In this document: piece after piece, positions 10,381-55,012 of the stretch
How positions within the stretch are numbered: the stretch's first letter is position 1
Layout of the letters: each line of letters starts with the position of its first letter
From: Candidatus Dormiibacterota bacterium
GTDB taxonomy: Bacteria; Chloroflexota; Dormibacteria; Aeolococcales; Bog-877
Direction: 5' to 3'
Assembly: GCA_027306655.1 (NCBI GenBank)
Contig: DAHUZL010000053.1
Location: 1 to 55,012, forward strand
DNA: 55,012 nt
The notes under the pieces: generated by a model
Told to the model about the DNA's origin: nothing
What the model saw: the letters and a program-made list of their open reading frames with translations, nothing else
Databases searched by the model: none
Position numbers and translations under genes: made by a program

Positions 10381-10384
10381 CCCC

Positions 10385-12443: not shown

Positions 12444-12537
12444 TCGGCGGCGTCCCTCGGGCACGCCGGCGGCCGCTGCGCACCGGCGGGGCGCGTGCCG
12501 CCCGTCGCACGGTCGCCGCCGACGGGGAGGGCCACCG

Positions 12538-14788: not shown

Positions 14789-16495
14789 CTACGGCAGTCC
14801 CGAACCGCCCACCAGCGGCAGCCACAGCCGGGACGGGTGGTCCGGGCCATGGTGGATGGTGTTGACCGCGACCCGCGGATCGCGCTGCTCCACCGCCCGC
14901 CCGGCCCGGTTGCAGTTGCGGGCGAACCAGGGGAAGTCGCTGCTGGTGACGGCGAGCACCAGGCGGTGCCCGGCGCGGAACACGTGGCTCGCCGGGTTGA
15001 GCTCGACCTCGAAGCGGGTGACCTCCCCCGGCACCAGCGGGGCGGGGTGGCTCAGCGAGTCGCGGCAGACGGCCCGCAGACACCCCGCCGCCACCCGGAT
15101 CAGCCCGCCGTCGGGACCCCGATCCTCCAGCTTGACGTGCCAGTCGGTGTCCTCGCCGTCGCTGCTGGCGAAGAGCTCCAGCCGGGGCCACCCGCTGATC
15201 GTGAGCGGCTCCGCCAGGGGTGGCGTGCTGTACAGGACCACGTCCGGGCGCCGGTCGAGGTGGCTCTCGTCGAGGCTCGGCTCATAGAACTCCTCGTAGC
15301 TGAGCCCGCCCGGCACCCGCACCGGGTCCCGGGGGTCATAGCGGTAGGCCAGCGGCGCTTCGGGGGCGGGGGCGGCCTCGCGGTCGAGGGTGGCGCCGGC
15401 GGGCCCGTGGCGCAGGTGGAGCGCCCGGCGCTCGCCCGCGAGCGGCCAGGCGGGCGGGGTGAGCCAGCGGTCGCTGCCGGTCTCGAAGAGCCGGACCCGC
15501 GGTTCGTCGGCCCATCCGTTGTCCTGCCCCTTCAGCCAGTGGTCGAAGAAGCGCAGCTGGATCTGGTCCATCTCCAGCGCGGCAGCGGCGCCGTAGTCGA
15601 CGCCGCCGTAGCTCGCCTGCGGGTAGCGGGTCCCGACGTGCGGCCAGGGCCCCACGATCAGCCACTGGTCACCGGCCCGCGGCGAGTCCCGCCGCATCGA
15701 CTCGTAGTGGTGGAAGGCGCCGAGCAGGTCCTCCCGGTCGTGCCAGCCGGCGACGTGGAGGCAGGGCAGGTCGAGGGTGCGGTAGTCGTCGTCGAGACGC
15801 AGCCGGCGCCAGAAGTCGTCGAGGGTGTCGTGGTCGCGCATGTCCGGCCAGGTCCCCGGCGCCGCCCCCAGGCTCTCCATCATGTCGGACACCGGGAGCT
15901 GCATCAGGAGCCGCTCCCAGTCGAGGTCGGAGCGGTTGTTCTGGATCCGGCGCCGGGTGCCGTGGACCCAATACGCGAAGTAGAGCTGAAAGACGCCGAA
16001 GGTGTAGGGGATCTCCTCCATCCAGCGGCCGGCGGCCGCGAACGACGCCATGCAGACGAGGTGGGGCGGGTGCTCGCGAGCGGTCGCCCACTGGTTCCAT
16101 CCGCCGTAGCTCAGCCCGGTGGTCCCCACCCGCCCGTCGCACCAGGGCTGCCGGGCCACCCACTCCACGACGTCATGACCGTCGGCGCCGTCGTGCACGT
16201 GGGCACGCCAGAGCCCCTCCGACTTGCCCCGGCCGCGGGTGTCGTAGGCGACGTACGCGTAGTCACGGGCCTGGAGGAAGCGTCCCTCGTCGACCGCGCC
16301 CACCCCCCGCTTGTCGTAGGGGGTGCCGAACACGACCGCCGGCACGGGACGTCCCGGGTCGGGGTCGGGACGGTAGACGTCGGCGGCCAGCATTGCCCCG
16401 TCGCGCATCGGCACCTCGACCTCGTCACGCCGGGCCGCCTGGGCCAGGGTGACCAGCGCCTGCCGGCGCTCGCGTGGGGTCGGGCGAGCGGTCAC
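14789..16495 (-). CDS. CocE/NonD-family hydrolase (second paralog)
   Basis: YDTRGRGKSEG, nucleophile elbow GTTGLSYGGW, and C-terminal HVFRAGHRLVLAV. The GTG start overlaps the stop of the upstream SBP gene (GTGA at 16492-16495). Confidence 0.85.
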   Translation of the reverse strand: MTARPTPRERRQALVTLAQAARRDEVEVPMRDGAMLAADVYRPDPDPGRPVPAVVFGTPYDKRGVGAVDEGRFLQARDYAYVAYDTRGRGKSEGLWRAHVHDGADGHDVVEWVARQPWCDGRVGTTGLSYGGWNQWATAREHPPHLVCMASFAAAGRWMEEIPYTFGVFQLYFAYWVHGTRRRIQNNRSDLDWERLLMQLPVSDMMESLGAAPGTWPDMRDHDTLDDFWRRLRLDDDYRTLDLPCLHVAGWHDREDLLGAFHHYESMRRDSPRAGDQWLIVGPWPHVGTRYPQASYGGVDYGAAAALEMDQIQLRFFDHWLKGQDNGWADEPRVRLFETGSDRWLTPPAWPLAGERRALHLRHGPAGATLDREAAPAPEAPLAYRYDPRDPVRVPGGLSYEEFYEPSLDESHLDRRPDVVLYSTPPLAEPLTISGWPRLELFASSDGEDTDWHVKLEDRGPDGGLIRVAAGCLRAVCRDSLSHPAPLVPGEVTRFEVELNPASHVFRAGHRLVLAVTSSDFPWFARNCNRAGRAVEQRDPRVAVNTIHHGPDHPSRLWLPLVGGSGLP

Positions 16496-18321
16496 GGGCC
16501 GCTGAGCGTCCAGTCCTCGGGGTAGATGTGGCCGGTGGGGTCTTGTGCGGTGATGCCGTGCAGGCGGCTGCTGATCACCGAGATCTGGTAGTCACTGTTG
16601 GGCAGCCAGAGGTCGGGAAGCTGGGCGGCGACGTAGTTCTCGTAGCGCTGGAGGGCGCCCAGGCCGGCGCCGATGTGGCTCTGGGCGATCAGCAGGTCGG
16701 TCCGCGCGTTGCTGTAGTGGCCGGTGTTGATGGGAGCGCCGGTGCCGAAGATGGTGCCACCGGTCGGGTAGTAGACCGGGACGTAGGTGATCGACGGCGG
16801 CCCCCAGTCGGCCAGCTGCCAGCCGCAGCCGGCCCCGGTCTTGGGATCGCACACCGCGGTGGAGCTGAGCACGTAGCTGTAGGGCGCCTGGCGCAGCCCG
16901 ATCTGGATTCCGGCCAGGGAGAAGGTGGACTTGAGCGCCTCCATCTCCTGGGTCACGGAGGGCACCCCGCTCTGGTACAGCAGGCTGAAGCTGAGCGGGG
17001 CCCCCCGCGCGATCCCGCTTCCGCACTCGCCCGTGCCGCCGCCCGGCCGCGAGCAGGTGCTGGTCCCCCCGGGCGCCACCGTCCATCCGTGGGAGCGGAG
17101 CAGGCCCTTCGCCGCGCTGAGACTGAAGGGATAGGGGTTGGTCCGCTCGAAGCCGGTGGCGTAGGGGTTGGCCGGCTGCACCGGAACCGGGCCGTAGGTG
17201 GGCCAGCCGAAGCCCTTGAAGATGCTGCGGATGTAGGCCGGCTCGTCGATCAGGTGCTGCATCGCCTGGCGCACGTAGAGCTGGCGGAAGATGGGGCCGG
17301 CCGCTCGGTTCCCGTAGTTGGGCTCGAGGAAGGTGAAGCCCCAGTAGAGCCACGACGCGACCCGGTAGCCCCGGCGGACCAGCTCGCCGCGCAGGGACAG
17401 GTCGGGGAAGGGAAGGTATCCGTAGTCCAGCTCGCCCGAGAGCAGGGCGTCGAACTCGGCGGCGTCGCTGGTGAAGGGGACCTCCTCCAGACGGGCGATG
17501 TGGGGCCGGTCCGGTCCGGAGTACCGGGAGTTGGGGACCAGCGTGGTGAACCCGTTGGCGGGGTCGAAGCCGCTCCCGCGGAGAAGCCGCCAAGGGCCGT
17601 CGACCACCTGCCACAGGGGGTTGGTGTCCCAGGTGACGCGGTCGCCGGACTGGGCGTTGAGGTACCGGTACACAGCCACCGCCCCGCGCGGGGTGGTGTC
17701 GTAGTTGCCGATCGGGCCCGAGGCCGACGTCCGGTCCCACGCCGCCTGCGGGATCGGGGTGATCTCGGAGAGCCCGTTGTCGGTCAGCCAGTTCTGGTTG
17801 AACGCCCGGGTGAAGGTCAGCTGCACCCGGTTGGCTGACGGGGTGCGGACCGCGGTCACCTGGTCGATCCAGTCGCCCGGCGAGTAGCAGCACCAATCGA
17901 TCTTGTTGGCGCGGATGAGATTGACCCAGAACGCGACGTCGCGGCTGGTGACGGGACGGCCATCAGACCACAGGTAATGGTGCAGGGTGATGGAGACGGT
18001 GCGGCCGCCGTTGGAGAAGACGGGCGGCTCGCCGATGCTGAGGCGGTAGTTGATGGTGGGCTGGACGCTGTGGCGGTGGCCGAACCAGTAGAGCGGACGC
18101 CACATGAGCGGTACGGTGTAGGTGAGGTTGTTGTTGCCCGAGTTGGCGCCGTCGAGGAGGGGGAAGATGTAGGTGGGCGGCGCACCCACCAGCTGGGCGA
18201 AGGTCACCGTCCCGCCCGACGCGGCGGCGCGCCCGGCGACCGCCGACACCCCCACCGTGCCCACGCCAGCGATAGCGAGGGCGGCGAGCGCCCCCCAGCG
18301 CCCGACCGGATGACGACTCAT
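16492..18321 (-). CDS. Family-5 ABC substrate-binding protein (peptide/nickel type), no cognate permease or ATPase in the window
   Basis: Start MSRHPVGRWGALAALAIAGVG (signal peptide), preceded by GGGAGAGGGAGGAG. It has the length and composition of the PF00496-type SBP fold (LWSDG.PVTS.DV.F). The upstream 122 codons of the tracked ORF are not protein-like. Confidence 0.8.
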   Translation of the reverse strand: MSRHPVGRWGALAALAIAGVGTVGVSAVAGRAAASGGTVTFAQLVGAPPTYIFPLLDGANSGNNNLTYTVPLMWRPLYWFGHRHSVQPTINYRLSIGEPPVFSNGGRTVSITLHHYLWSDGRPVTSRDVAFWVNLIRANKIDWCCYSPGDWIDQVTAVRTPSANRVQLTFTRAFNQNWLTDNGLSEITPIPQAAWDRTSASGPIGNYDTTPRGAVAVYRYLNAQSGDRVTWDTNPLWQVVDGPWRLLRGSGFDPANGFTTLVPNSRYSGPDRPHIARLEEVPFTSDAAEFDALLSGELDYGYLPFPDLSLRGELVRRGYRVASWLYWGFTFLEPNYGNRAAGPIFRQLYVRQAMQHLIDEPAYIRSIFKGFGWPTYGPVPVQPANPYATGFERTNPYPFSLSAAKGLLRSHGWTVAPGGTSTCSRPGGGTGECGSGIARGAPLSFSLLYQSGVPSVTQEMEALKSTFSLAGIQIGLRQAPYSYVLSSTAVCDPKTGAGCGWQLADWGPPSITYVPVYYPTGGTIFGTGAPINTGHYSNARTDLLIAQSHIGAGLGALQRYENYVAAQLPDLWLPNSDYQISVISSRLHGITAQDPTGHIYPEDWTLSGP

Positions 18322-31200: not shown

Positions 31201-32772
31201 TCAGGCGGCGGTGTAGCCGGGGGGGAGGGGCCGGGGCGCGGGGGGGCCCACGTAGATCGCCGACGGCCGGATCAGCCGATTGTGCTGGGCCTGCTCGCAC
31301 ACCGCCGCGGTCCAGCCGGCGAGCCGAGAGCAGGCGAAGGTGGGCGTGAACATGTCCCGGGGCACCCCGACCGTGTTCATCACCACCCCGGCGTAGAACT
31401 CCACGTTGGTGTACAGGCGGCGCCCGGGCTTGAGGTCCTGCAGCACCCGCAGCGCGGTGGCCTCGACCTGCCGGGCGAACTCCGCCTGATCCCCGCCCAG
31501 GCGCAGCGCCACCTCGCGGAGCAGGGTCGAGCGGGGGTCGTCGGTCTTGTAGACGCGATGGCCGAATCCCATCAGGCGGTCGCCGTGCTCGATCTGGTCG
31601 CGCAGCACCTGCTCGGCCCGGTCGGGGGTCCCGATGGTGTCGAGGGTGTCCAGGGCCCGCGACGGGGCTCCGCCGTGGAGGGGTCCGGAGAGGGCGCCCA
31701 GGGCTCCGATCACCGCGGCTCCGACGTCGGCGCCGGTCGAGGCGATCACGCGCGCCGTGAAGGTCGAGGCGTTGAAGCCGTGGTCCATCGTGAGGATGAG
31801 GTACTGCTCCAGCGCGCGGGCCGCCTCGGGCTCCGGCCGGCGACCGGTGAGCAGCTGGAGGTAGGCGGCGGCATAGCCCAGGTCGGGGTCGGCGTCCGCC
31901 GGCGGGTCGCCCCGGTGGGCGCGGTACTGGCGCAGGAGCACGACCGGGGCCACCGCGGTCAGCCGCAGAGCCGCGTCCATCACCTCCTCGCGGGTGGAGT
32001 CGAGGGTGGGGCGCAGCCCGAGGCTGCTCGCGACCAGCGAGAGCGCGGTCCGAAGGGCGGAGAGCGGCGCGAACGGCTCCACCCGGGTCAGCGGTTGGAG
32101 CAGGTCGGAGACCTCGGGCGCCAGCTCCCGGGCGACCCGGGCGCGCTCGCGGAAGGCGGCCAGCTGGGCTTGGTCCGGCAGCTCACCGATGAGCAGCAGG
32201 TGCCACACCTGCTCGAAGGAGCAGCGGCGGGCCAGCTCGGTGGCGTCGTACCCGCGGTAGTGGAAGAAACCCTCCTCCCCGCGCACGTCCCCGACCGCGG
32301 TCTCGGCGACCGCCACCCCCTCCAGCCCCGGCGGGGCCACCGTCGGGGCCGAGCCCGCCGGGCGGACGTCCTCGATGTGGGCAACGCGGACGATGTGCCG
32401 GATCGAGAGCATCCCCACCAGGCGGCCGCGCTCGAGCACCGGCAGGTGCCGGAAGTGGTGCTGGCGGAAGATCTCCAGCGCGATCGCCACCGGGTTGTCG
32501 GCGGTGAGGGTCACCGGGCTGGGGGACATCAGCGTCTCCACCGGGGTCGCGGGGTCGAGCCCGGTCCCGAGCGCGCGGAGCAGGTCGCGCTCGGTGACGA
32601 TGCCGATCACCCGGTCGTCGGGGTCCAGCACCGCGGCCGCGCCGACCTTGGCCCCGTCCAGGAGCCGCGCCAGCTCCGGGGCCGACATCTGCGGACGCGC
32701 CACCACCGGCGGCTGGTGCATCAGCTCGCGGACGGACACCGCTGCGGTCATCAGGCCCTCCCATCCGTCCAC
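31201..32772 (-). CDS. Citrate synthase (2-methylcitrate/citrate synthase type II fold) with N-terminal CBS-pair fusion
   Basis: The N-terminal ~135 aa hold two CBS motifs (VARPQMSAPELARLLDGAKVGAAAVLDPDDRVIGIVTERDLLRAL; VTLTADNPVAIALEIFRQHHFRHLPVLERGRLVGMLSIRHIV). The citrate synthase part reads GLEGVAVAETAVGDVRGEEGFFHYRGYD...SGPLHGGA...GFGHRVYKTDDPR. The alternative start MTAAVSVREL at 32751 is probably the real one. Confidence 0.85.
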   Translation of the reverse strand: MDGWEGLMTAAVSVRELMHQPPVVARPQMSAPELARLLDGAKVGAAAVLDPDDRVIGIVTERDLLRALGTGLDPATPVETLMSPSPVTLTADNPVAIALEIFRQHHFRHLPVLERGRLVGMLSIRHIVRVAHIEDVRPAGSAPTVAPPGLEGVAVAETAVGDVRGEEGFFHYRGYDATELARRCSFEQVWHLLLIGELPDQAQLAAFRERARVARELAPEVSDLLQPLTRVEPFAPLSALRTALSLVASSLGLRPTLDSTREEVMDAALRLTAVAPVVLLRQYRAHRGDPPADADPDLGYAAAYLQLLTGRRPEPEAARALEQYLILTMDHGFNASTFTARVIASTGADVGAAVIGALGALSGPLHGGAPSRALDTLDTIGTPDRAEQVLRDQIEHGDRLMGFGHRVYKTDDPRSTLLREVALRLGGDQAEFARQVEATALRVLQDLKPGRRLYTNVEFYAGVVMNTVGVPRDMFTPTFACSRLAGWTAAVCEQAQHNRLIRPSAIYVGPPAPRPLPPGYTAA

Positions 32773-32839
32773 CCGCCGGCGCGGGTCAGCTCGTCCGCCA
32801 TCGCCCCCCGCCCGTCGGCGGAGGACGGCCGCCGATCGC

Positions 32840-32992
32840 TCAGGGCCGCTCGGGCGGAGGGGTCCCGGTCGGGCCGGCCCGTCGCTCGCCCCGGTCCGCC
32901 CGGCGGAACAGGACGATCCATCCCACCAGGGAGCCCCCGGCGATGAGGGCCAGCATGCCCAGCGAGATTGCGATCTGACCGCCCGAGGTCAT
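32840..32992 (-). CDS. 50-aa single-TM membrane peptide
   Basis: MTSGGQIAISLGMLALIAGGSLVGWIVLFRRADRGERRAGPTGTPPPERP. A strong Shine-Dalgarno (GGAAGGAGGAGGCC) precedes the ATG directly. It lies 68-89 nt upstream of the CBS-citrate synthase on the same strand. Confidence 0.45.
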   Translation of the reverse strand: MTSGGQIAISLGMLALIAGGSLVGWIVLFRRADRGERRAGPTGTPPPERP

Positions 32993-47592: not shown

Positions 47593-47857
47593 CGTCGGCC
47601 GGCGCGGAGCGGACCCGGAGACCGGGGGGTGACCGTCGGTGGGCGCACCGGGACTCCTCTGCCGAGGCCGACCGCTCGCGGGAGACGAGGGCCGCGACCG
47701 AGATCTTACGGCCAACCCGCCCGCTCCCAGGTGAAACCTTCCGGCCGTCCCCGGCGTTCCAGATTTGGGCACGGCGCGCAGGGCGCCTCCCCGCCCGTCC
47801 GGGTCCCGACCGTGCCGGCCGGCTCGGGCAGCGCGCCGTGCCCGAGTCTGCCAGGCC

Positions 47858-50185
47858 ATGTGGAACGCCCCCTCCCCCGGCGACCGCCTCACGCGCGCAC
47901 CGGGCGGCCGATCGCGCCCGGTGCGCGCGTCGCGGGGGGGACGGCCCGGGCGGCCGGCCCCGATCGGGAGCCGCCCTCGCTCCCGCCGCCGGCGCTCACA
48001 GGGAGTGAGCGGGCTGGTCGCGACCCTCCTCGTCCTGGTGTTCGCCGTCGCTCTCGGCACCGGCCCGGCGGCGGCGCTCACCCGGGTCCTGGGGGCGCTG
48101 CCCACCCCCCACCGGTTCCCGACCGACACCCTGATCTTCGCGGCGAACGGGACCGAGATCGCCGACCTGCACGCCCCCGGCCAGAGCCGGATCCCGGTGC
48201 CGCTCGCGCGCGTCGCCCCGAGCTTTCTCCGCGCGGTGGTGGCCACCGAGGACCGCAGCTTCTGGACCGGGGGCAGCATCGACTGGCCGCGGCTGGTGGC
48301 GGCCGCCCTCCACGACGTGCTCCACCACGGGACCCTGCAGGGGGCGAGCACCATCCCCGAACAGCTCGCCAAGCTCCGCTACCTCACCGACAACCGCAGC
48401 ATCTCGTACAAGATCCGAGAGATCCTGCTCGGCCAGGAGCTGAGTGCCACCGAGTCGCGGCGCACCATCCTCGACCAGTACGTCAACGACGTCTACTTCG
48501 GCGATGGCGCCACCGGGATCGAGGCGGCCGCGCTCACCTACTTCGGCGTTCACGCCAGCCAGCTGACCCTGCCGGAGTCGAGCCTGCTCGCCGGGCTGCT
48601 GCCCGCCCCCAGCGCGCTCGACCCGCTGGTCAACCTGAGCGGCGCGCGGGACCGGCAGCAGGTGGTGCTGGCGTCGATGGTGGCCGCCGGCGACCTGAAA
48701 CCGGCGCGGGCGCGGGCGGCGTCGGTCGCACCGCTGCCGCTGCGCCGCACACCGGCGACGACCCTCGACCTGGCTCCGTACTTCGTCGACCACGTGGAGC
48801 GCTGGCTCGCCGCCCGGTTCGGTCCCGCCGTCGTGGCCCTGGGGCTGCGGGTGCACACCCCGCTCCGGCTCGGTCTGGAGCGGCTGGCCCAGCGGCTGGT
48901 GACGGCCACGGTGGCCCAGGGGCAGCCGATGCACATGACGGACGGCGCGCTGGTGGCGATTGACCCCCGCACCGGCGACGTCATCGCCTACGTGGGGGGC
49001 GCCGGCGCCGGGGTGCCCGGCGGGCAGATCGACATGGCCGCCGCGCCGCGCCAGCCGGGGTCGACGGCCAAGCTGGTCACCTACAGCGCCGCCCTCGCCG
49101 CCCACGCGGTGACCATGACCACCCCCGTCCTCGACGCGCCGCTGTCGCTGCCGCGGGGCGGGCCGCCGGGCGGGCGCGGGCCCTTCGTCGTGCACGACTA
49201 CGAGGGCGTCTACCAGGGAGTGGTCCCGGCGCAGGTGGCGCTCGGCAACTCCCTCAACGTGCCCGCCGTCCGCGTCGAGCTCCGCACCGGGGTGCGGCGG
49301 GTGGTGGAGCTCGCCCGCCGGATGGGCATCACCACCCTGGGGGGGCCCGCCGCCGCCTACGGGCCCAGCCTCACCCTCGGGGCCTACCCGATCCCGCTCT
49401 GGGAGACCGCCCAGGTGGGGTCGGTCCTCGCCACCCAGGGGCTGCTCCGTCCGGCCCGCTTCGTCACCCGGGTGACGACGGCCGGAGGCCGCCTCCTCTA
49501 CACCGCCCCGTCCCGGGCGCGGCGCGTCCTCTCGGCGCGGGTGGCGTACATCATGAACGTCATCCTCTCGCGCAACGCCAACCGCCTGCTCGCCTTCGGG
49601 CCGGCGACCGACCTGGTGGTGCCGGGACGGACCGTGGCGGTCAAGACCGGGACGTCGAACGACCTGCGCGACAACCTCGCGGTCGGATGGACGCCCACCC
49701 TGGTGACCGGCACCTGGGTGGGCAACGCCGACGACGCGCCGATGTACGGCGGCGGCATCAACGGGATCAGCGGGGCGGCGTCGCTGTGGAACGCCTTCAT
49801 GACGGCGGCGCTCGCGCCCACGCCCAACCGGTACTTCCCCACCCCGCCGGGGCTCACGGTGGACGGGTCGGCGGGGCAGCGTGTCTACTACCTTCCCGGC
49901 ACCGGCCCCACGACCGCCGTTCTGGGCATCGCCGGCGGCGGCGCGGGCGGCCCCGTCACCAACGTCCGCTACCGCGGCATCTGCCGCTACTGGACCTACA
50001 ACAGCGGCAACTACTACTGGTGCGGCACCGGGCCGTCGGACCTCCCCGGCGACCCCGGACCGCGCCCGGTGACGGCGGCCGCCCCGGGGACGGCGCCCGC
50101 GGGCGACGGCCAGGGGCAGGGGCAGGGCGCCGGCCAGGGCAACGGCAACGGCCAGGGCACCGGCAACGGCCAAGGCACCGGATAG
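47858..50185 (+). CDS. Class A penicillin-binding protein (GT51 transglycosylase + transpeptidase) with C-terminal extension
   Basis: GT51 motifs are ATEDRSFW, GASTIPEQLAK and YKIREILL. Transpeptidase motifs are PGSTAK (SxxK), GNSLN (SxN) and VKTGTS (KTG). ATG 47858 was chosen; a GTG at 48005 is possible. Confidence 0.85.
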   Translation: MWNAPSPGDRLTRAPGGRSRPVRASRGGRPGRPAPIGSRPRSRRRRSQGVSGLVATLLVLVFAVALGTGPAAALTRVLGALPTPHRFPTDTLIFAANGTEIADLHAPGQSRIPVPLARVAPSFLRAVVATEDRSFWTGGSIDWPRLVAAALHDVLHHGTLQGASTIPEQLAKLRYLTDNRSISYKIREILLGQELSATESRRTILDQYVNDVYFGDGATGIEAAALTYFGVHASQLTLPESSLLAGLLPAPSALDPLVNLSGARDRQQVVLASMVAAGDLKPARARAASVAPLPLRRTPATTLDLAPYFVDHVERWLAARFGPAVVALGLRVHTPLRLGLERLAQRLVTATVAQGQPMHMTDGALVAIDPRTGDVIAYVGGAGAGVPGGQIDMAAAPRQPGSTAKLVTYSAALAAHAVTMTTPVLDAPLSLPRGGPPGGRGPFVVHDYEGVYQGVVPAQVALGNSLNVPAVRVELRTGVRRVVELARRMGITTLGGPAAAYGPSLTLGAYPIPLWETAQVGSVLATQGLLRPARFVTRVTTAGGRLLYTAPSRARRVLSARVAYIMNVILSRNANRLLAFGPATDLVVPGRTVAVKTGTSNDLRDNLAVGWTPTLVTGTWVGNADDAPMYGGGINGISGAASLWNAFMTAALAPTPNRYFPTPPGLTVDGSAGQRVYYLPGTGPTTAVLGIAGGGAGGPVTNVRYRGICRYWTYNSGNYYWCGTGPSDLPGDPGPRPVTAAAPGTAPAGDGQGQGQGAGQGNGNGQGTGNGQGTG
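50102..50182 (+). repeat. Coding low-complexity Gly-Gln/Gly-Asn repeat at the PBP C-terminus
   Basis: The degenerate ggc-cag/aac periodicity encodes GDGQGQGQGAGQGNGNGQGTGNGQGTG, immediately before the TAG at 50183-50185. Confidence 0.7.
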
Positions 50186-50232: not shown

Positions 50233-50787
50233 TCAGGCCAGCACCGCCTCCTCGGCCCCCGCCAGCACCTGCCACCTCCGCCGCTGACCGGCCCCGAGCC
50301 CCGCGCCGGTCGCGAGCGCGTCGCCCACCGCGGCCAGGAGCTGGGCCGCCCGGAAGGGCCGCTCCAGGTACACGAAGCCAAGGGCCTCCATCCGCCGGCG
50401 CAGCTCGGGGCCGGGGGTCCTGGCGCTGACGAAGACCACCGGCGTCGCATCCCACCGGTGGCTGTGGAGGAGTCGGCGGCAGAGCTCGAAGGCGCTGAAG
50501 TCGGGAAGGTGGACGTCCAGAACCGCGCACGCGACCCGGGTCTCGGCGGCCGCCTCGAGCGCCGCCAGGGCGCCCGCCGCCTCCACCACGACGAACCCCG
50601 CCCGGACCAGGATCGCACCGGTCACGGTGCGGCTGTCACGGTCGTCGTCCACGACCAGGACCGGCGGACGCGGCCCCGGGCCGAGGCCGCTCGGGGACGG
50701 AGAGGACAGGGAGGAGGGGGCCACCGGCCCATTGTCGACCGCGGATCTGACAATCCCTTCACCGACGCGCCGCACCTGCGCACCCAT
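50233..50787 (-). CDS. Single-domain response regulator (receiver only)
   Basis: PPVLVVDDDRDS (acidic pocket), AVLDVHLPDFSAFEL (phospho-acceptor Asp context), and PVVFVSAR. No output domain is present. It has a ~40-aa Ser/Pro-rich N-terminal extension. Confidence 0.75.
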   Translation of the reverse strand: MGAQVRRVGEGIVRSAVDNGPVAPSSLSSPSPSGLGPGPRPPVLVVDDDRDSRTVTGAILVRAGFVVVEAAGALAALEAAAETRVACAVLDVHLPDFSAFELCRRLLHSHRWDATPVVFVSARTPGPELRRRMEALGFVYLERPFRAAQLLAAVGDALATGAGLGAGQRRRWQVLAGAEEAVLA

Positions 50788-50875
50788 CCTGTGACGGGGT
50801 CGCGAGGTCCCGCCCCGTCGCCGCCGGCTGGCGGGACCAGAGGGGTGTGCGAACCGGGCGTGCGGAGGCGCTGCG

Positions 50876-52714
50876 GTGACGGGAGAGGGCAGCGGCCATT
50901 CTCCCGGCAGTGCCCATGCCGCGCCGCTGCTCGCCGCCGGGCTGGCGGTGCTGGTGTACGGCAGCGCGCTGGTGTGGCTGGCGGCCGGGATCAGCCAGGG
51001 GGCGCACTTCGGCCCCTACTCGGCCGGGCTGCTCCCCGACCTGCTGCTCCGGCCGGCGCTGACCCCGAACGGGATCGCGGCGCCCCGCCGAGCCGCCCCG
51101 GTCTTCTGGGCGGCCCTCACCCTCCTGGGGACGGCCTCAGGCCTGGCCGCCGTCCGCGCCGGGGGCTGGTGGCGGCGGCGGCGACGGCCCGTGAAGGGGG
51201 GCGTCCTGGGGCGGGCCGACCATGCACGCCGAGCGGACCTGGCCCAGCTCCGCGGCAGTTGGCGGCCGGCGGCGCTGGGGCTCGCCGCGCGGGCCGGGGC
51301 GACCCGCGGACGACCGGGGGCCGGCCGGGCGGCGGAGCCAGGCGGAGCGGGGTCGCGCCCCGACGGGGAGCGACAGGTGCCGACCCGCGACGGCTCGGCC
51401 CCGGGCGCGGAGTGCGCCGCCCCCCGGTTCCGGCTGGGCACCCACCACGGTCGCGCGCTCTGGAGCACCCCCGACGACCACGTCCTGGTGTTGGGCCCGA
51501 CCGGGGCGGGCAAGTCGAGCGGCTACGCGGTCCCGGCCGTGCTGGAGTGGCCGGGGCCGGTCGTGGTCACGGACCCCAAGGGGGAGCTGGTCACGCGGAC
51601 GCTGGCCCACCGCCAGCGGCTGGGCCCGGCCGCCGTCTTCGCCCCCATGCTGGCGCCCACCGACCGCTGGAACCCGCTCGGCGCCGTCGTCACCGCCGAC
51701 GACGCGCTGCGGACCGCGGGCCTGCTCATGGGTCGCGCGCCCGACCGCGACCCCTTCTGGCACGACCTCGCCCGCCAGCTTCTGCACGGCCTCGTGGTCG
51801 AGGCGGCGGTCGCCGGCCTCACGCTCGGCGACCTCCTCCGGCTGCTCCAGGAGACAGCGGCCGAGGAGCTCCCCGATGCCGTGGCCCACCCGGTCGCCCG
51901 CCGCATCGTCCAGGGCTCGCTGGCCGGGGGCGATCGCACCGCGATGGGGGTGGTGGCGACGTGCATCGCGCAGCTGGGCCCGTATGGGGCCGACCAGGTG
52001 GTGGCGGCCACCGGGGCCTCCGACTTCGACCCGGCGTGGATCGCCGACGGACGGCTGCGGACGCTCTACTGCGTCGTCACCCCTCACGACGCGATCCTGA
52101 TCCGGGGGTTGGTGGGCGCCCTGCTGTCGCGGGCCTGGCGGGCATGCTTCGCCAGCCCTCCGGCGCCCGCGGCGGCCTTCGTCCTCGACGAGTTCGCCCA
52201 GCTGACCCACCTCCCCGAGCTGCCCGCACTGACCCAGCTGGGTCGCTCCCAGGGGGTGCGGCTGTGCCTCCTGGCGCAGGATCTGGCCTCGGTCCGCGCC
52301 ACCTACGGGGCCGAGGCGGTCGCCGCCCTGTGGTCCAACTGCCGGGCCAAGCTGCTGCTGGCCGGCATCTCCGAGGTGGACCTGCTCGACCAGGCCAGCC
52401 GCCTCGCCGGCACCTCCACCTTCCATGTCCGCGGCTCCGGCACCGACAACGCCGCAGCGGCCCAGGCGCAGGCCGCCCAGCCCCTCCTCCACCCCGACGA
52501 CATCCGCCGCCTCGACCCGTGGGACGCCCTCCTGCTGCACAGCTCGGCGCAACCGGCGATCGTCCGCCAGCGCCGCTGGTACCGCGATCGCCGCCTGCGG
52601 GCCGCGGTGGGGCTGCCGGTTCCGTCGCGCGCCCGGCTGGGGCCGGCGCCGGGCGTCCCGCTGCAGGAGGAGGCACCGGTGGTAACCGCGGGCGCACCGG
52701 GCCGGGCGGGCTGA
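50876..52714 (+). CDS. Type IV secretion coupling protein (VirD4/TraG/TraD family ATPase)
   Basis: Two N-terminal TM helices (PLLAAGLAVLVYGSALVWLAAG; VFWAALTLLGTASGLAAV). Walker A in HVLVLGPTGAGKSSGYAVPAVLEW, followed by PVVVTDPKGEL. Walker B-like AAAFVLDEFAQL. ...LLLAQDLASV... matches the usual T4CP layout. GTG start. Confidence 0.8.
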   Translation: MTGEGSGHSPGSAHAAPLLAAGLAVLVYGSALVWLAAGISQGAHFGPYSAGLLPDLLLRPALTPNGIAAPRRAAPVFWAALTLLGTASGLAAVRAGGWWRRRRRPVKGGVLGRADHARRADLAQLRGSWRPAALGLAARAGATRGRPGAGRAAEPGGAGSRPDGERQVPTRDGSAPGAECAAPRFRLGTHHGRALWSTPDDHVLVLGPTGAGKSSGYAVPAVLEWPGPVVVTDPKGELVTRTLAHRQRLGPAAVFAPMLAPTDRWNPLGAVVTADDALRTAGLLMGRAPDRDPFWHDLARQLLHGLVVEAAVAGLTLGDLLRLLQETAAEELPDAVAHPVARRIVQGSLAGGDRTAMGVVATCIAQLGPYGADQVVAATGASDFDPAWIADGRLRTLYCVVTPHDAILIRGLVGALLSRAWRACFASPPAPAAAFVLDEFAQLTHLPELPALTQLGRSQGVRLCLLAQDLASVRATYGAEAVAALWSNCRAKLLLAGISEVDLLDQASRLAGTSTFHVRGSGTDNAAAAQAQAAQPLLHPDDIRRLDPWDALLLHSSAQPAIVRQRRWYRDRRLRAAVGLPVPSRARLGPAPGVPLQEEAPVVTAGAPGRAG

Positions 52715-52724
52715 GGCGTCACCG

Positions 52725-53027
52725 GTGCCGCCGCCGACCGCCGCCACGCTCCTCACCGGGCTCGACACCGTGATCCACACGGTGACCACCCTCGCGTTGG
52801 GGGCGATCGCGGTCCTCTGCCTCAGCGTGGCGGCGATCCGCTACATGACCGCGCTCGACAGCGCGCAGCGGCGGGCGGCAGCGCTGCAGGGGCTGGTGAC
52901 GGTGATGGTGGGAGTGCTCCTGATCGTCAACGAGGGGGCGATCCTCGGATTCGTGGAGGGGTTGACCGGCAGCAACACCGCGTGCACCAGCTCCGCCTGC
53001 GGGTCGACCAGCGCCACCGGACCGTGA
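52725..53027 (+). CDS. VirB2/TrbC-like small two-helix membrane protein (candidate T4SS pilin-like subunit)
   Basis: 100 aa. ...TLALGAIAVLCLSVAAIRYMTALDSAQRRAAALQGLVTVMVGVLLIVNEGAILGFV... forms a helix, a short basic loop and a second helix, as in the TrbC/VirB2 family. It sits directly after the T4CP. The tail is Ser/Thr/Cys-rich. Confidence 0.5.
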   Translation: MPPPTAATLLTGLDTVIHTVTTLALGAIAVLCLSVAAIRYMTALDSAQRRAAALQGLVTVMVGVLLIVNEGAILGFVEGLTGSNTACTSSACGSTSATGP

Positions 53028-53030
53028 GGC

Positions 53031-55012
53031 GTGCGCACGCCGTCCCGGGGCGGGGCCCGCCGCGCCGGGCAGCGGCTGCGCACACTGACGCTGACGCTGC
53101 TGCTCGCCGAGGGCCTCGGGGCGGCGCTGGCGGCCCCGCACCCCGGCCGTCCCGGGCCGGCCGGCTCCGGCGGCGCACCCGGCCTGGTCCTCCGCGCCGG
53201 GGCGCCCCGGCCGCGGAATCCGATCGGAGCGGATCGCACCAGCCAGCAGTGCGGGGGCATCCTCGACCCCGGCTGCACCATTCTCGACGCGATCGTGACG
53301 GGCCCGATCACCCTGATGGGCAGCCTCGACGGCAGTCCCGACCCGGCCCACATCGATCCCGTGTCGGGGGCGATCACGACCGGGCCCTGGCACTTCGTCA
53401 CCACGATGGTGGGCAGCAATCCCCAGGTGGACAGCTACGACGGCAGCCTGGGAGAGCCGGCCCACGCGTGCGGGGCTCAGGGATGCATCCCCTGGGTGGA
53501 GACCTTCGACCACCTCACCGTCCCCCTCTGCCTGGGCCTGCTGGTGCTGGTCTTCCTGGTGCAGGTGATCCTGTTCATGGCCGGGCAGCAGCTGCAGCTG
53601 CGCCGCCACGTGGTTCCCTGCCTGGTGGCGGCGGCGGTGCTGGCGGCCGATCTCCCCCTCCACGTCGCCGGCCGCATCATCGACGCCGGCAGCTGGCTGT
53701 CGCAATCGCTGGTGACGGCGGCGCTGCGCGCGCCGACCACCGCCCTGGCCACCCGCGGGGGACCGCTAAACATGATGACGGTGCTCGCCATCACCGCCTA
53801 CTGCCCTGCCGACAGTCCCATCGTGCATCCCGGGATCCACCTCGCCTGGCCGGGCACCTCCCCCCAGCTGGCGGTCCTGGTCAAGCCCTGGATGGATCCC
53901 ACCGACACCCAGTCCCACTGCATCGCCAGCGACGACCCTGACTTTGCCAAGGAGGTCCTCGACCGCAGCGACAACGTGCTCGGCCCTCCCCTCCACGACG
54001 TCAACTGCGACGCCACCGTGGTCGTCCCCAGCCAGCCCCTGTGCACCAACGTCGACAACTCCGTCAACGACAACCACAACCAGGACTGCCTCGAGGGCAG
54101 CGGCAGCGGCGACGGAGTCCAGGGCCAGCTCGGCGTCCTGCCGCTGCCGGGCGAGCCACGGGCGGGCCAGGGCCAGCGCGCCGCCGACTGCCGCTACGCC
54201 GACATCTACTGGGGGACCACCCCCACCTTCACCAATGTCTGGGCCGGCGTCGGCCCCCACGGACGCAACGGCTATGACGTGCCCGACGGTCTGGTGGGGA
54301 TGGTGGCATTCACCGTCCTCACCGGGCTGGCGGTGGTGGTCGCCTTCAGCTACCTGCTGCGCTACCTGGTGCTGTCGCTGCTGGCCGCGTTCAGCGCGGT
54401 GGCGGTGCTGGCGCTCGCCGTCCCCGGCGGCGGGGCGCTCTTCTCCCGCTGGTTGCGAGCCCTGGTCGGGCTCTCCCTGGTGGTGGTGGTGCAGACGGTG
54501 GTGTTCCTCGTGTTCGTGGCGGTGGTGTCGACCGCGTCGGGGCTGGCGCCCGCCAGCCCTGCGGCCGGCTGTCCGGTCCTCGCCCCGACGGCGGCGGGGT
54601 GCACCGCCGGGGCCGGCGGGGGCGTGCTCGCCGCGGTGGGCAGCGCCGCCCAGGGCGACCAGTTCGTCAAGTGCTGCTTCGCCATCCTCACGGTGTGGCT
54701 GATGCTGACCCTCCCCCGTCACCTCTTCCCCCAGGACATGGGGACGGTGCGGGCGGCTCGGCTGGTCGGTGCGGCAGGGCTGGCGACCGCCGCGGTCGGG
54801 GTGGGACTGGTCGCGCACGACGTGCCGCGGGCGGCGGTGCGGGCGACCCGGCGGATCGCCGGCGCCCCGATGCCGTCCGGGCCGCGGGTCGATCCCGCCG
54901 CCCCGGGCGACGGCTCTCCGCCAGCCGGGGCGGCCTCCTCGGACCGGACCGCGGTGGGGCGGTCCGCCACCACCCCGCCCACCGGGGCGCCGGCCGCGGC
55001 GCGCGGGCGCGG
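53031..55012 (+). CDS. Large cysteine-rich polytopic membrane protein, 5' partial (runs off the right edge); occupies the position of VirB6/TrbL
   Basis: Not in the supplied track because there is no stop in the window. The hand-translated frame is open from GTG 53031 to 55012. It reads VRTPSRGGARRAGQRLRTLTLTLLLAEGLGAALAAP (signal-like)...VPLCLGLLVLVFLVQVILFMAG...GLVGMVAFTVLTGLAVVVAFSYLLRYLVLSLLAAFSAVAVLALAV...LVGLSLVVVVQTVVFLVFVAVV...CCFAILTVWLMLTL... The composition is protein-like. The two tracked plus-strand ORFs and two minus-strand ORFs covering this region are Arg/Pro/Gly shadow frames. Confidence 0.7.
   Translation, partial: MRTPSRGGARRAGQRLRTLTLTLLLAEGLGAALAAPHPGRPGPAGSGGAPGLVLRAGAPRPRNPIGADRTSQQCGGILDPGCTILDAIVTGPITLMGSLDGSPDPAHIDPVSGAITTGPWHFVTTMVGSNPQVDSYDGSLGEPAHACGAQGCIPWVETFDHLTVPLCLGLLVLVFLVQVILFMAGQQLQLRRHVVPCLVAAAVLAADLPLHVAGRIIDAGSWLSQSLVTAALRAPTTALATRGGPLNMMTVLAITAYCPADSPIVHPGIHLAWPGTSPQLAVLVKPWMDPTDTQSHCIASDDPDFAKEVLDRSDNVLGPPLHDVNCDATVVVPSQPLCTNVDNSVNDNHNQDCLEGSGSGDGVQGQLGVLPLPGEPRAGQGQRAADCRYADIYWGTTPTFTNVWAGVGPHGRNGYDVPDGLVGMVAFTVLTGLAVVVAFSYLLRYLVLSLLAAFSAVAVLALAVPGGGALFSRWLRALVGLSLVVVVQTVVFLVFVAVVSTASGLAPASPAAGCPVLAPTAAGCTAGAGGGVLAAVGSAAQGDQFVKCCFAILTVWLMLTLPRHLFPQDMGTVRAARLVGAAGLATAAVGVGLVAHDVPRAAVRATRRIAGAPMPSGPRVDPAAPGDGSPPAGAASSDRTAVGRSATTPPTGAPAAARGR

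Follow-up and report, generated by a model that had tools for sequence, protein, structure and literature searches.

A T4SS locus with a divergent stand-alone receiver gene, conserved at one chromosomal site in Candidatus Dormibacterota

Genes at the locus and their continuation in relatives

The window (the whole stretch of DNA analyzed, 55,012 nucleotides) comes from a Candidatus Dormibacterota MAG and ends inside a six- to seven-gene T4SS operon, of which it covers the first half. To the left of the module lie housekeeping genes, among them those for fumarase, PlsY, DegV, and PBP1A; a first-pass annotation of this DNA had likewise described a left flank of core metabolism and cell wall functions. 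PBP1A, a class A PBP (47765..50185, plus strand; Pfam Transgly, 4.5e-48, and Transpeptidase, 2.7e-12), is found at this position in every locus; it is the left neighbor of the module, lies outside it, is convergent with the receiver gene, and marks the housekeeping boundary. The four genes that follow are those named in the first-pass annotation, with their reading frames present as stated: a stand-alone receiver, a T4CP, a VirB2-like protein, and a polytopic protein.

The receiver gene (REC; 50233..50724, minus strand) encodes a stand-alone CheY-like receiver of 163 aa (Pfam Response_reg, E = 2.7e-16), and a profile built from 20 orthologs matches PDB receivers at E ∼1e-15. Alignment with 31 orthologs places its start at a GTG codon at 50724; the alternative, an upstream ATG at 50787, would give a protein of 184 aa. 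With the GTG start, the divergent intergenic region is therefore 151 bp long, not 88 bp as first annotated. The rest of that earlier description, a divergent receiver-only regulator, holds, since Response_reg is matched and Pfam found no output domain. The phospho-acceptor Asp (VLDVHL) is invariant, and the acidic residues D26/D28 and S100 (Ser/Thr) are conserved. Of 32 sequences, 28 retain the conserved Lys; the window protein and its three closest relatives have Arg instead (ERPF), a substitution that may alter signaling in this clade.

The operon opens on the plus strand with a gene for a VirD4/TraG-type T4CP of 612 aa (50876..52714), which matches Pfam T4SS-DNA_transf (1.8e-44), TrwB_AAD_bind (2.7e-24), and TraG-D_C (3.8e-22), the first and last above their gathering cutoffs. 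The first-pass annotation had made this assignment contingent on a T4CP HMM match, which T4SS-DNA_transf supplies. A TM scan places the TM helices at the N terminus. The protein contains the motifs GPTGAGKS and VVVTDPKGEL, and orthologs show no variation in Walker A and B. NCBIfam VirD4-like families match as well, every one below its equivalog cutoff. Relatives at 51 to 75% identity fall into ∼63 clusters, of which the named ones are almost all Dormibacterota; the next relatives share ≤33%.

The second gene encodes a VirB2-like T4SS pilin of 100 aa (52725..53027, plus strand) and starts 10 nt past the T4CP stop codon, a gap given earlier as 11 nt. Taken alone, the window protein scores below the threshold of T4SS_pilin PF18895 (E = 7e-5; 23.2 bits versus a gathering score of 26.6); all 25 orthologs match this family (best, 5.6e-8) and 10 of 25 match TrbC/VirB2, which upholds the earlier identification as a two-helix, 100-aa VirB2/TrbC-like protein. 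The pilin is a two-TM hairpin with invariant Cys32, Cys87, and Cys92. Its mean pairwise identity (0.81) surpasses that of every other gene in the region, fumarase included; its dN/dS ranges from 0.02 to 0.24.

The third gene follows after a 3-nt gap, as first annotated, and occupies the VirB6 position. It encodes a lineage-specific polytopic membrane protein, delineated by translation, TM scan, and alignment (53031..55012, plus strand, open to the window end). Its 660 codons in the window include at least six TM helices; orthologs have 686 to 776 aa (∼750 to 765 aa at full length among the closest relatives), so ∼100 residues are missing from the window copy. The layout comprises a signal/anchor, a Cys-rich ectodomain, two TM helices, a large Cys-rich ectodomain, at least four TM helices, and a cytoplasmic tail, with >10 Cys residues invariant in the alignment. 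The C-terminal cytoplasmic domain is conserved and confidently helical in the AF2 model; that model is poor (pLDDT 54), and Foldseek run with it found no fold match. All 55 clusters of the family are from Dormibacterota and none from outside the phylum, and a search against 1.84 billion representatives returned only nine matches, all of the protein's own family: at the level of sequence, it is without a detectable homolog outside the phylum. Similarity to TrbL/VirB6 was found for 1 of 22 members, below threshold (E = 0.0045), and similarity to a 753-aa Embleya plasmid protein encoded upstream of PrgI was marginal (hhalign E = 1.2e-3, probability 19%; tblastn, 3e-4). Together with position and topology, this very weak similarity weakly suggests a VirB6-like protein.

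In orthologous loci, the operon reads T4CP, VirB2-like pilin, polytopic protein, PrgI/VirB3-like protein, full-length VirB4, and CHAP hydrolase, with an M23 peptidase gene preceding CHAP in the window's clade. PrgI PF12666 is matched by 21 of 21 orthologs of the fourth protein (best, 4.2e-8), single scores lying just under the gathering score, and the gene overlaps the start of virB4. VirB4 (685 to 803 aa; Pfam P-loop_TraG, 1.8e-17, and AAA_10) is encoded two genes downstream of the polytopic protein in all 30 loci that reach far enough. It is unsplit: a TrsD-like N-domain, matching TrsD-like proteins at 3.9e-18 to 2e-4, is fused to the ATPase. Directly after it comes the hydrolase that would act as VirB1, CHAP (3.6e-17) with an N-terminal TM helix or, in the window's clade, M23 (5.7e-19) plus CHAP. 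The first-pass annotation had tied its T4SS reading to a VirB4 or other T4SS parts downstream; loci at 73 to 75% T4CP identity carry genes for PrgI/VirB3-like protein, VirB4, and peptidoglycan hydrolases, and by comparison with these relatives the window's own genome presumably encodes VirB4 too. In most loci, neighboring operon genes are separated by about −10 to +90 nt, and 4-nt overlaps are frequent; a small number of larger gaps come from start codons that were called only approximately. The core set described for monoderm T4SSs comprises VirB1, B3, B4, B6, B8, and D4 (PMC12857230). Gene calls of the orthologous loci include no separate VirB8/TcpC-like (NTF2-fold) gene, for which one of the Cys-rich ectodomains of the polytopic protein could be a substitute, and the operon has no outer-membrane core parts.

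Synteny, codivergence, and mobility genes

We found the locus in at least 33 other Dormibacterota species genomes (GTDB), at the same site and perfectly syntenic. The shared order is LipA-acyltransferase, GT4, DegV, PlsY, FumC, a hypothetical protein, PBP1A, REC, T4CP, pilin, polytopic protein, PrgI-like protein, VirB4, CHAP, (MFS), UbiA, and UroD; it holds for each locus up to the end of the contig, with REC on the opposite strand. At 90% identity, T4CP, VirB4, and the polytopic protein each form ∼55 to 63 clusters, many of them nameless and the named ones almost all from Dormibacterota.

The module has diverged together with its flanks. Per-gene identity correlates with that of FumC/PBP (r = 0.83 to 0.95), distances from concatenated T4SS and housekeeping proteins correlate at r = 0.98 (Mantel p ∼0.001, intercept ∼0, slope 1.45), and the two NJ trees have 15 of 21 splits in common. 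The T4SS genes and REC are under purifying selection (dN/dS 0.02 to 0.36 versus 0.04 to 0.24 for neighbors). Base composition is like that of the flanks, as noted in the first pass: GC is 0.760 in the module and 0.752 in the rest, with a codon-usage cosine of 0.97. Distances that track housekeeping genes, low dN/dS, and native composition therefore argue for vertical inheritance and against an ICE or plasmid island. Patchy presence, a variable site, and atypical composition were considered and ruled out by the fixed site in at least 33 genomes, the correlation of 0.98, and native GC and codon usage, respectively.

Genes for mobility are absent in cis. No similarity to TrwC or Replic_Relax was detected in 663 kb (loci plus window); no relaxase Pfam was found in the gene calls of the loci or among the 16 large ORFs that were scanned from the window's left 42 kb, and no integrase in the gene calls of orthologous loci. 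There is no tRNA at the locus or in the window, no oriT-associated gene in cis in the operon loci, and a search for att or flanking repeats gave only chance-level short repeats inside genes. These scans agree with the earlier remark that the left boundary has no integrase, relaxase, tRNA, or att-like repeat. The right boundary, seen in at least 25 orthologous loci, lies four to five genes past the window end, where the module runs straight into UbiA/UroD; it too has no integrase, relaxase, tRNA, or flanking repeat.

The T4SS genes start abruptly after housekeeping genes, and the nearest outside VirB4/T4CP relatives lie on mobile elements that carry integrase and relaxases of the Replic_Relax or TrwC type; both facts might suggest a resident ICE or integrated plasmid island, with integrase and relaxase genes shortly past the window end. 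We regard this as very unlikely, given that at least 25 orthologous modules end four to five genes on without either gene, that one site is used in at least 33 species genomes and has codiverged with its flanks, and that there is no tRNA or att repeat and composition and codon usage are native. The same boundary, fixed site, and codivergence dispose of two readings offered in the first pass, an old resident ICE and a plasmid-derived island with its recombination genes beyond the window. They favor its third, a chromosomal T4SS-like apparatus; the non-conjugative role and phosphorelay control that it included are matters that we infer. It is scarcely credible that an ancient conjugative element left the module behind as a decaying relic without function, as the lack of a relaxase and of a recognizable VirB8-like gene could imply: all genes are intact in at least 30 species, dN/dS (0.02 to 0.36) is similar to that of fumarase and PBP1A, catalytic motifs are invariant, and the pilin is more conserved than fumarase. 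In our view, this is probably a domesticated, vertically inherited chromosomal T4SS of the monoderm (Gram-positive/MPF-FATA-like) kind and a conserved feature of Candidatus Dormibacterota.

The receiver, its control region, and possible functions

Alignment of 32 intergenic regions revealed a divergent control region between REC and T4CP (50725..50875) with blocks conserved across the phylum: ATTGTC (50731-50736; read on the minus strand as GACAAT, a −10-like box that precedes the start codon of REC by 6 nt), CTGAC (50747-50751), TTCACCG (50758-50764), CCTGTGAC (50788-50795), GTCGCG (50799-50804), and GGAC (50834-50837). The remaining clades have the blocks CAT-N7-AGTCTA (minus strand, TAGACT), CCTGTAAC, GTCGC, and GGAC, which do not vary among them. 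The conserved blocks suggest a REC promoter whose mRNA is probably leaderless. The intergenic region has no match to the sigma-70 consensus and no Rfam family, and its alignment yields no consensus RNA structure (−0.56 kcal/mol, 0 covarying pairs).

REC is present in all 32 loci that cover its position, its dN/dS is 0.02 to 0.22, and its identity tracks that of the T4SS and housekeeping genes. The first-pass annotation had suggested checking whether REC and T4CP co-occur. They do, in 32 of 32 loci; this does not amount to specific coupling, since the whole 20-kb neighborhood is syntenic, and adjacency therefore does not tie REC to the T4SS. Gene calls within ±10 kb include no histidine kinase (HisKA, HATPase_c). 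The only kinase-like match is an ORF with a borderline HATPase_c match 43 kb away.

It is thus possible, though we doubt it, that REC is functionally unrelated to the T4SS, serving for example PBP1A/cell wall control or an unlinked pathway, and merely sits between two conserved blocks. Besides the uninformative adjacency, such a reading draws on the convergence of REC with PBP1A (their stop codons are 0 to 40 nt apart in most loci), on the lack of a DNA-binding output domain and of a nearby kinase, and on the T4SS loci of Chloroflexi and CPR-like relatives, which are without REC. It sits less well with the divergent control region common to REC and T4CP, 150 to 250 bp long across loci and with phylum-wide invariant blocks, or with a REC identity that tracks the T4SS and housekeeping genes.

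From the known biology of these gene families we infer how the machine might assemble and form a pilus, what kind of substrate (protein or DNA) it might carry, and how REC might act. The CHAP/M23 hydrolases would make local openings in the cell wall; the polytopic protein, together with the PrgI-like protein and VirB4, would make up a membrane translocon; VirB4 would extract pilin from the membrane into a short wall-spanning or extracellular conduit; and the T4CP would recruit a macromolecular substrate and feed it to the channel. REC, phosphorylated by an unlinked kinase, would gate T4SS assembly or ATPase activity via protein-protein contact. The near-invariant pilin and ectodomains point to a conserved partner, probably of the same lineage, rather than an arms race.

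In many conjugative systems the T4CP is kept with its relaxase, and trans arrangements also exist. In Dormibacterota, the T4CP heads its operon and is maintained by purifying selection but has no relaxase alongside; we therefore lean slightly toward a non-conjugative role, in which protein would be exported or transferred through cell contact, or another cell-cell exchange would take place. Alternatively, the system could be a DNA transfer machine (conjugation-like, DNA release, or DNA uptake) that serves the host chromosome as built-in gene exchange, its relaxase or DNA-processing protein being encoded elsewhere. The TrwB-like DNA-binding-domain match (2.7e-24) of a T4CP retained first in the operon under purifying selection would suit such a machine, as would an ultra-conserved pilin and ectodomains (same-lineage mating) and the conserved, confidently helical cytoplasmic domain of the polytopic protein, which has no assigned role. 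We nevertheless consider it unlikely: there is no relaxase within ±10 kb of any locus or in the 55-kb window, the T4CP is not beside a relaxase as its nearest relatives are, and a non-conjugative role is assumed for the analogous system of Patescibacteria (PMC12102498).

Comparison with known systems

The closest VirB4s outside the phylum (30 to 37% identity) belong to Actinomycetota megaplasmids (Embleya, Streptomyces, and Miltoncostaea) and a Chloroflexota ICE-like element. In an NJ tree (578 columns, 200 bootstraps, small reference set), the Streptomycetaceae pair is a weak sister group to Dormibacterota VirB4 (bootstrap 65). These modules share PrgI with Dormibacterota, and the Chloroflexi element also has T4SS_pilin; between their T4CPs and that of Dormibacterota, only the P-loop is shared. 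Unlike the Dormibacterota module, they lie on plasmids or islands and include Replic_Relax relaxases, primase, FtsK, and integrase; a relaxase or integrase adjoins the nearest outside VirB4/T4CP relatives (Embleya plasmid, Chloroflexi element, and TrwC module).

The part list also matches that of MPF-FATA conjugation systems on plasmids and ICEs of Gram-positive bacteria (pGO1/pSK41 Trs, pCF10 Prg/Pcf, and pCW3 Tcp): T4CP, PrgI/TrsC-like protein, VirB4 (TrsE/PrgJ/TcpF), polytopic protein, and CHAP or another wall hydrolase, with an outer-membrane core missing from both. A CagC/VirB2-like gene plus TrsD is found on SAP079A, a pGO1-type plasmid. Indirect signs of such a relationship are PrgI and TrsD-like homology, best plasmid matches that are all monoderm, and VirB4 identity of 21 to 31%; against MPF-FATA VirB4 itself, identity is only 21 to 24%. 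In contrast to these systems, the Dormibacterota module has no relaxase, oriT, replication genes, or VirB8/TcpC-like gene and is not on a mobile element.

A minimal Gram-positive "type IVC" T4SS, that of Streptococcus suis 89K, has been reported to secrete the protein SspA-1 and not just to transfer DNA (PMC3464263; PMC12857230). As far as these accounts go, a monoderm T4SS can thus export protein. Likened here by description, the 89K system differs in that it lies on a mobile pathogenicity island and includes VirB8-like and relaxase functions.

The known T4SS regulators VirG, BvrR, BatR, and PmrA are DNA-binding response regulators, and we know of no described case of a CheY-like single-domain regulator gating a T4SS. 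PilG and PilH, which are CheY-like single-domain regulators, gate the ATPases of type IV pili, another surface machine. By analogy, REC may be comparable: it is receiver-only, adjoins genes of an envelope-spanning, ATPase-driven machine, and has no DNA-binding output.

In Patescibacteria, chromosomal monoderm T4SSs that lack a relaxase and have VirB2-like pilins have been described (Quinonero-Coronel et al. 2025, PMC12102498; PMC12857230); one of the Patescibacteria/CPR cases is Southlakia epibionticum (Wang et al. 2023, as cited in PMC12857230). Dormibacterota are a second single-membrane lineage, after Patescibacteria, with a resident T4SS that has a pilin and no relaxase in cis. Both systems are monoderm, chromosomal, and widespread in their phylum, have no adjoining relaxase, and include VirB4, PrgI/VirB3-like, VirB6-position, and hydrolase genes and VirB2-like PF18895 pilins (PMC12102498); a CPR-like locus, for example, carries pilin, PrgI, and VirB4. 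Their VirB4s are mutually among the best matches (33 to 36% identity, E ∼1e-80). In the NJ tree, however, Dormibacterota VirB4 forms its own clade (bootstrap 100) outside the CPR clade (bootstrap 99), and the node joining both with Actinobacteria/Chloroflexi has support of only 37 to 65. VirB4 is unsplit in Dormibacterota and divided into TrsD plus a short VirB4 in CPR (PMC12102498); the T4CP opens the operon in Dormibacterota and is usually distant in CPR; and a single ultra-conserved pilin contrasts with arrays of divergent ones. Only Dormibacterota have the lineage-specific polytopic protein and the divergent receiver gene, and their host genomes are 2.4 to 2.5 Mb, compared with sub-1-Mb CPR epibionts. 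There is a small chance that the Dormibacterota system is a core, host-serving, pilus-forming, non-conjugative monoderm T4SS with a CheY-like receiver as its post-translational switch, going back to one ancient domestication shared with the essential T4SS of Patescibacteria and hence older than the Chloroflexota/Dormibacterota/Patescibacteria split. If common domestication were true, this free-living lineage with larger genomes would offer a tractable view of the enigmatic function of the CPR T4SS.

A T4SS operon and its conserved surroundings

The 612-aa product of 50876-52714 (plus strand) is, from its sequence matches, unambiguously a VirD4/TraG-type coupling protein (T4CP): it matches Pfam T4SS-DNA_transf (E = 1.8e-44), TrwB_AAD_bind (2.7e-24), and TraG-D_C (3.8e-22), as well as NCBIfam VirD4-like models, the latter all under their equivalog cut-offs. 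Downstream on the same strand lie a 100-aa pilin-like protein consisting of a two-TM hairpin (52725-53027) and a polytopic protein without a Pfam match, whose frame begins at 53031 and runs for 660 codons to the window end without a stop. A receiver protein (REC; Response_reg, 2.7e-16) that lacks an output domain is encoded divergently on the minus strand, ending at 50233, and the gene directly left of this module encodes PBP1A (Transgly, 4.5e-48). The four reading frames claimed by the first-pass annotation are all present. Its divergent spacer of 88 bp needed redrawing: ortholog alignment puts the REC start most likely at GTG 50724 (163 aa), so the spacer measures 151 bp.

The rest of the window encodes ordinary metabolic and envelope proteins: L,D-transpeptidase, S15 peptidases, oxidoreductases, citrate synthase, acetyl-CoA synthetase, a DsbH-like thioredoxin, fumarase, PlsY, and DegV. 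The citrate synthase (31201-32988, minus strand) carries an N-terminal CBS domain pair. Paralogous S15 X-Pro dipeptidyl-peptidase genes (10385-12670 and 14789-16591, minus strand) flank a flavin amine oxidase gene (12418-14175) and adjoin a gene for an SBP_bac_5 peptide-binding protein; this group may be a peptide-use cluster. PBP1A ends in a low-complexity Gly/Gln/Asn tail (about 50090-50185; GDGQGQGQGAGQGNGNGQGTGNGQGTG).

The exact T4CP is recorded on only one other contig, which is shorter (20 kb; GCA_027313425.1) and ends earlier; sequence past the window end was read from orthologous loci. T4CP homologs at 51-75% identity fall into about 63 clusters, those with a named source being almost all Candidatus Dormibacterota metagenome-assembled genomes (MAGs), and relatives beyond these Dormibacterota-type clusters are at 33% identity or less. 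With each GTDB species represented by a single genome, a scan yielded at least 33 Dormibacterota loci, with flanks of up to 10 kb per side. Gene order, based on gene calls for two long contigs and on mapping 30 reference proteins to every locus by tblastn, was invariant across all loci mapped. Genes for a lipid acyltransferase, GT4, DegV, PlsY, FumC, a small minus-strand product, and PBP1A precede the module; the module runs REC (minus strand), T4CP, pilin, polytopic protein, a 116- to 175-aa protein, a 685- to 803-aa ATPase, and a CHAP protein; and an MFS transporter (sometimes), small genes, UbiA (minus strand), and UroD follow. The 116- to 175-aa protein is PrgI/VirB3-like (Pfam match in 21 of 21 orthologs; best E = 4.2e-8), and the ATPase is VirB4 (P-loop_TraG, 1.8e-17; AAA_10). 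L005 and L006, two loci of the window's clade with a 75% identical T4CP, have an additional gene, for an M23 peptidase, after the ATPase gene and before the CHAP gene; each wall hydrolase (M23, 5.7e-19; CHAP, 3.6e-17) has an N-terminal TM helix. The operon contains no VirB8/TcpC-like gene. Spacing within the module is operon-like, with frequent 4-nt overlaps; together with the ortholog gene order, this shows a T4SS operon of six to seven genes, of which the window contains the first three along with the divergent REC. The window stops short of VirB4, and we infer from its relatives that its own genome holds the remainder.

A second, larger CHAP-domain gene lies just past UroD, about 3-4 kb downstream of the operon (L004 20924-21662), in a position conserved in L012, L013, L015, L017-L019, L024, and L029. 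Extra sequence of 1.1-2.9 kb separates the small minus-strand gene from PBP1A in L005 (5969-7128), L006 (4655-6932), L007 (4884-7214), and L035 (4181-7080), and is absent from the window and most other loci. Some SMAG_* records with the Dormibacterota-syntenic locus (L005, L006, L012, L018, and L025; DATKRN01, DATLUG01, DATLTJ01, DATKSI01, and DATKSV01) bear the titles Verrucomicrobiia, Micrarchaeia archaeon, Acidiferrales, Micrarchaeaceae archaeon, and Nanopelagicaceae, which probably misstate the taxonomy of the deposited MAGs.

Is the module mobile or resident?

The first-pass annotation had left three readings standing: an old resident ICE, a plasmid-derived island whose recombination genes lie beyond the window, and a chromosomal T4SS-like apparatus. 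The insertion site is identical in all 33 species genomes recovered, among at least 33 with the locus. We found no integrase or relaxase families in the gene calls of the loci, no tRNA in the window or the loci, and no att-type flanking repeats except chance-level ones inside genes. Searches for a relaxase or other missing parts covered the loci and the window, with no TrwC or Replic_Relax similarity in 663 kb of loci plus window; these results bear out the earlier observation that tRNA, integrase, relaxase, and att-like repeats are lacking at the left boundary. Nor do the orthologous loci contain recombination genes past the window end, as the plasmid-island reading had supposed. The earlier view of base composition also held: GC is 0.760 in the T4SS part versus 0.752 in the remainder of the window, GC3 is 0.935-0.95, and the codon-usage cosine is 0.97.

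T4SS protein identities track those of FumC and PBP1A (r = 0.83-0.95; 276-496 genome pairs). For 24 genomes, concatenated T4SS distances correlated with housekeeping distances at r = 0.98 (Mantel p about 0.001; slope 1.45, intercept 0.035), and 15 of 21 neighbor-joining (NJ) splits were common to both sets, as expected for co-divergence from one ancestor. The T4SS genes and REC have dN/dS values of 0.02-0.36, compared with 0.04-0.24 for FumC, PBP1A, and DegV; such low values indicate that these genes are kept by selection. By contrast, the closest outside relatives occur in mobile contexts: an Embleya linear plasmid encodes PrgI, VirB4, T4CP, a replication-relaxation protein, and NlpC/P60; a Chloroflexi element encodes FtsK, TrbL_4, SLT, T4SS_pilin, PrgI, VirB4, primase, Replic_Relax, and integrase; and a T4CP relative lies in a compact module with a TrwC relaxase at its head.

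Since every test for a mobile element failed (site, genes, tRNA, repeats, co-divergence), we rejected the ICE and plasmid-island readings and accepted the chromosomal apparatus, the one option of the three that proved correct; the earlier interpretation is thus supported only in that part. The Dormibacterota loci hold a complete minimal monoderm T4SS gene set that is fixed in the chromosome, under purifying selection, and without a DNA-processing gene in cis.

Pilin, polytopic protein, and receiver

The window's pilin by itself falls just below the Pfam T4SS_pilin gathering score; among its orthologs, PF18895 matches 25 of 25 and TrbC/VirB2 matches 10 of 25. Its mean pairwise identity (0.81, versus 0.77 for fumarase) is the highest of the region's proteins, with Cys32, Cys87, and Cys92 invariant and a basic inter-helix loop. 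A PDB sequence search with the pilin profile returned nothing significant.

The polytopic protein begins with a variable signal/anchor, a conserved Cys-rich ectodomain, and two TM helices; continues with a second ectodomain of roughly 190 residues with six invariant Cys and at least four further TM helices; and closes with a variable linker and a conserved helical cytoplasmic end (LDAAYLNALRRGRL). A word-indexed search placed all of its 55 clusters in Dormibacterota, and exhaustive HMMER against 1.84 billion representative proteins recovered only its own family. From its position, topology, and faint TM-bundle similarity, it may be a VirB6 analogue: one of 22 members matched TrbL (E = 0.0045), hhalign aligned it with the Embleya protein upstream of PrgI (E = 1.2e-3, probability 19%), and tblastn similarity reached 3e-4; hhalign against S. 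aureus TrsF gave nothing. An AF2 model from a 50-sequence alignment (pLDDT 53.9, pTM 0.33) was poor except for the TM helices at 418-500 and the C-terminal domain. Pfam found nothing in that confident domain, the PDB sequence profile search gave only noise, and in a Foldseek search of PDB with the model, no match had an E-value under 8.

REC resembles generic CheY-type receivers: the phospho-acceptor Asp is invariant, the acidic residues and Ser/Thr are present, and a conserved tail of about 30 residues trails the domain. Arg replaces the conserved Lys in the window, L005, L006, and L007 (ERPF or VRPF, not PKPF), and the other 28 sequences keep Lys, a difference that may mean altered REC signaling in the window's clade. 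There is no kinase gene near REC. Among 16 large ORFs scanned in the window's left 42 kb, the sole kinase-like match is a borderline HATPase_c (6679-8232, plus strand; E = 1.1e-5, at the gathering score), 43 kb from REC.

In the REC-T4CP spacer (50725-50875 and its equivalents in L005-L037), several non-coding blocks do not vary from clade to clade. One reads TAGACT on the minus strand, or GACAAT in the window, and stands 6-7 nt ahead of the REC start codon, a position that would fit the geometry of a leaderless REC mRNA; leaderless promoters are known in Terrabacteria. On the T4CP side the blocks are CCTGT(A/G)AC, GTCGC, and GGAC. A riboswitch or structured 5' UTR was rejected: no Rfam family matched the spacer in either clade, and RNAalifold gave -0.56 kcal/mol without covariation and no conserved RNA structure, so we read the blocks as DNA elements. 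A sigma-70 consensus scan of the spacer found no match, and neither -35/-10 nor ECF-type boxes fit the T4CP promoter convincingly. The common control region suggests coordinated control of REC and T4CP. Since the whole neighborhood is syntenic, adjacency alone is no proof that REC serves the T4SS.

Proposed role and relation to known systems

Going by their families, the hydrolases would breach the cell wall; the polytopic protein, PrgI-like protein, and VirB4 would form the membrane channel; VirB4 would move pilin into a wall-spanning conduit; and T4CP would bring substrate to the channel. REC would gate the machine through direct contact, the weakest link of this explanation. Because T4CP has kept its place at the head of the operon and evolves under constraint (dN/dS 0.14-0.25), the machine likely transfers a substrate and does not solely assemble a pilus. 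The lack of a relaxase beside T4CP tilts the balance modestly toward transfer of protein or another non-conjugative substrate; it also counts against exchange of chromosomal DNA with a relaxase acting in trans, a live rival that we consider rather improbable. Conservation as extreme as that of the pilin and ectodomains speaks against an arms race directed at varied targets and would fit a partner that is itself conserved, possibly sister cells.

After Dormibacterota, the best VirB4 matches were one Chloroflexi protein and many Patescibacteria (CPR) proteins (33-36% identity); the best plasmid matches came from Streptomycetaceae and Thermoleophilia megaplasmids (30-37%), and Firmicutes PrgJ/TcpF/TrsE-type VirB4s were at 21-27%. 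In a coarse NJ phylogeny (578 columns, 200 bootstraps), Dormibacterota (100) and CPR (99) VirB4s were each monophyletic. Streptomycetaceae plasmids formed a weak sister group of Dormibacterota, and the linking nodes were weak (Streptomycetaceae, 65; Chloroflexi, 37; Dormibacterota/CPR, 39). With deep nodes at 37-65, the tree neither supports nor excludes sisterhood of the Dormibacterota and CPR T4SSs; given the weak linking nodes and separate clades, the system appears to belong in a broad monoderm (MPF-FATA-like) assemblage that includes the CPR T4SS, not in the CPR clade itself. T4CP and VirB4 differ in their nearest outside relatives, which could reflect a mosaic ancestral element, or the sequences sampled may be too few to decide. 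At 33% identity, the closest T4CP outside Dormibacterota lies in a compact module (L071; JGI 3300005573, Ga0078972_1000587, 570-11875) with a TrwC relaxase (minus strand), UvrD, a TrbC/DUF6112 small protein, two unknown proteins, a 430-aa AAA_10 ATPase, and T4CP, flanked by MurT/GatD and LPG-synthase genes; it looks like another chromosomal T4SS-like cluster, with a relaxase.

Patescibacteria T4SSs are chromosomal, mostly relaxase-less, equipped with VirB2-like pilins, and, in one species, essential for epibiotic growth (PMC12102498; PMC12857230). A 2025 review considers them unique among monoderms for these pilins and a host-serving role, and counts non-DNA functions of Gram-positive T4SSs among the questions that have long been open (PMC12857230). 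A Chloroflexi ICE-like element (L069 9303-9596), a pGO1-type S. aureus plasmid (L065 1-159), and a CPR-like locus (L070 291-563) likewise carry genes for VirB2-like pilins (PF18895 or "CagC family"); VirB2-like proteins thus seem more widespread in monoderm T4SSs than PMC12857230 states. Many Patescibacteria T4SS loci are reported close to oriC; in the complete 2.49-Mb Dormibacterota chromosome OY969577.1 (L023), the operon is found 97-104 kb into the record.

The literature searched, PMC12102498 and PMC12857230 included, contained no report of a T4SS in Dormibacterota. Judging from the genomes compared, theirs is a second phylum-wide domesticated monoderm T4SS, with a distinctive polytopic component and an adjoining receiver. 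It would add a second phylum with a minimal, pilin-containing T4SS that is chromosome-fixed, vertically inherited, and without a relaxase in cis; a new Cys-rich, strongly conserved membrane protein in the VirB6 position; and a candidate example of a T4SS with an attached regulator that consists of a receiver alone. It also corrects "conjugative element," the likely default label for such loci in MAGs, and its compact, sharply bounded operon is suited to heterologous reconstruction.

The Dormibacterota system offers a comparative partner for the CPR T4SS, which it resembles in being chromosomal, in lacking a relaxase (in cis for Dormibacterota), and in having a VirB2-like pilin. Whereas Patescibacteria are reduced epibionts, Dormibacterota are soil bacteria with 2.4- to 2.5-Mb genomes. 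Their VirB4 is full length, and a profile of its first 260 residues, with matches covering about residues 15-180, recognizes stand-alone TrsD-like proteins of Pontibacillus (3.9e-18), Geobacillus (3e-9), Miltoncostaea (1.4e-6), and S. aureus (2e-4, small database); the TrsD-like proteins matched precede short VirB4s in their own loci. Thus, where pGO1-type and CPR systems have TrsD and a short VirB4 as two genes, Dormibacterota have the unsplit form, a single VirB4.
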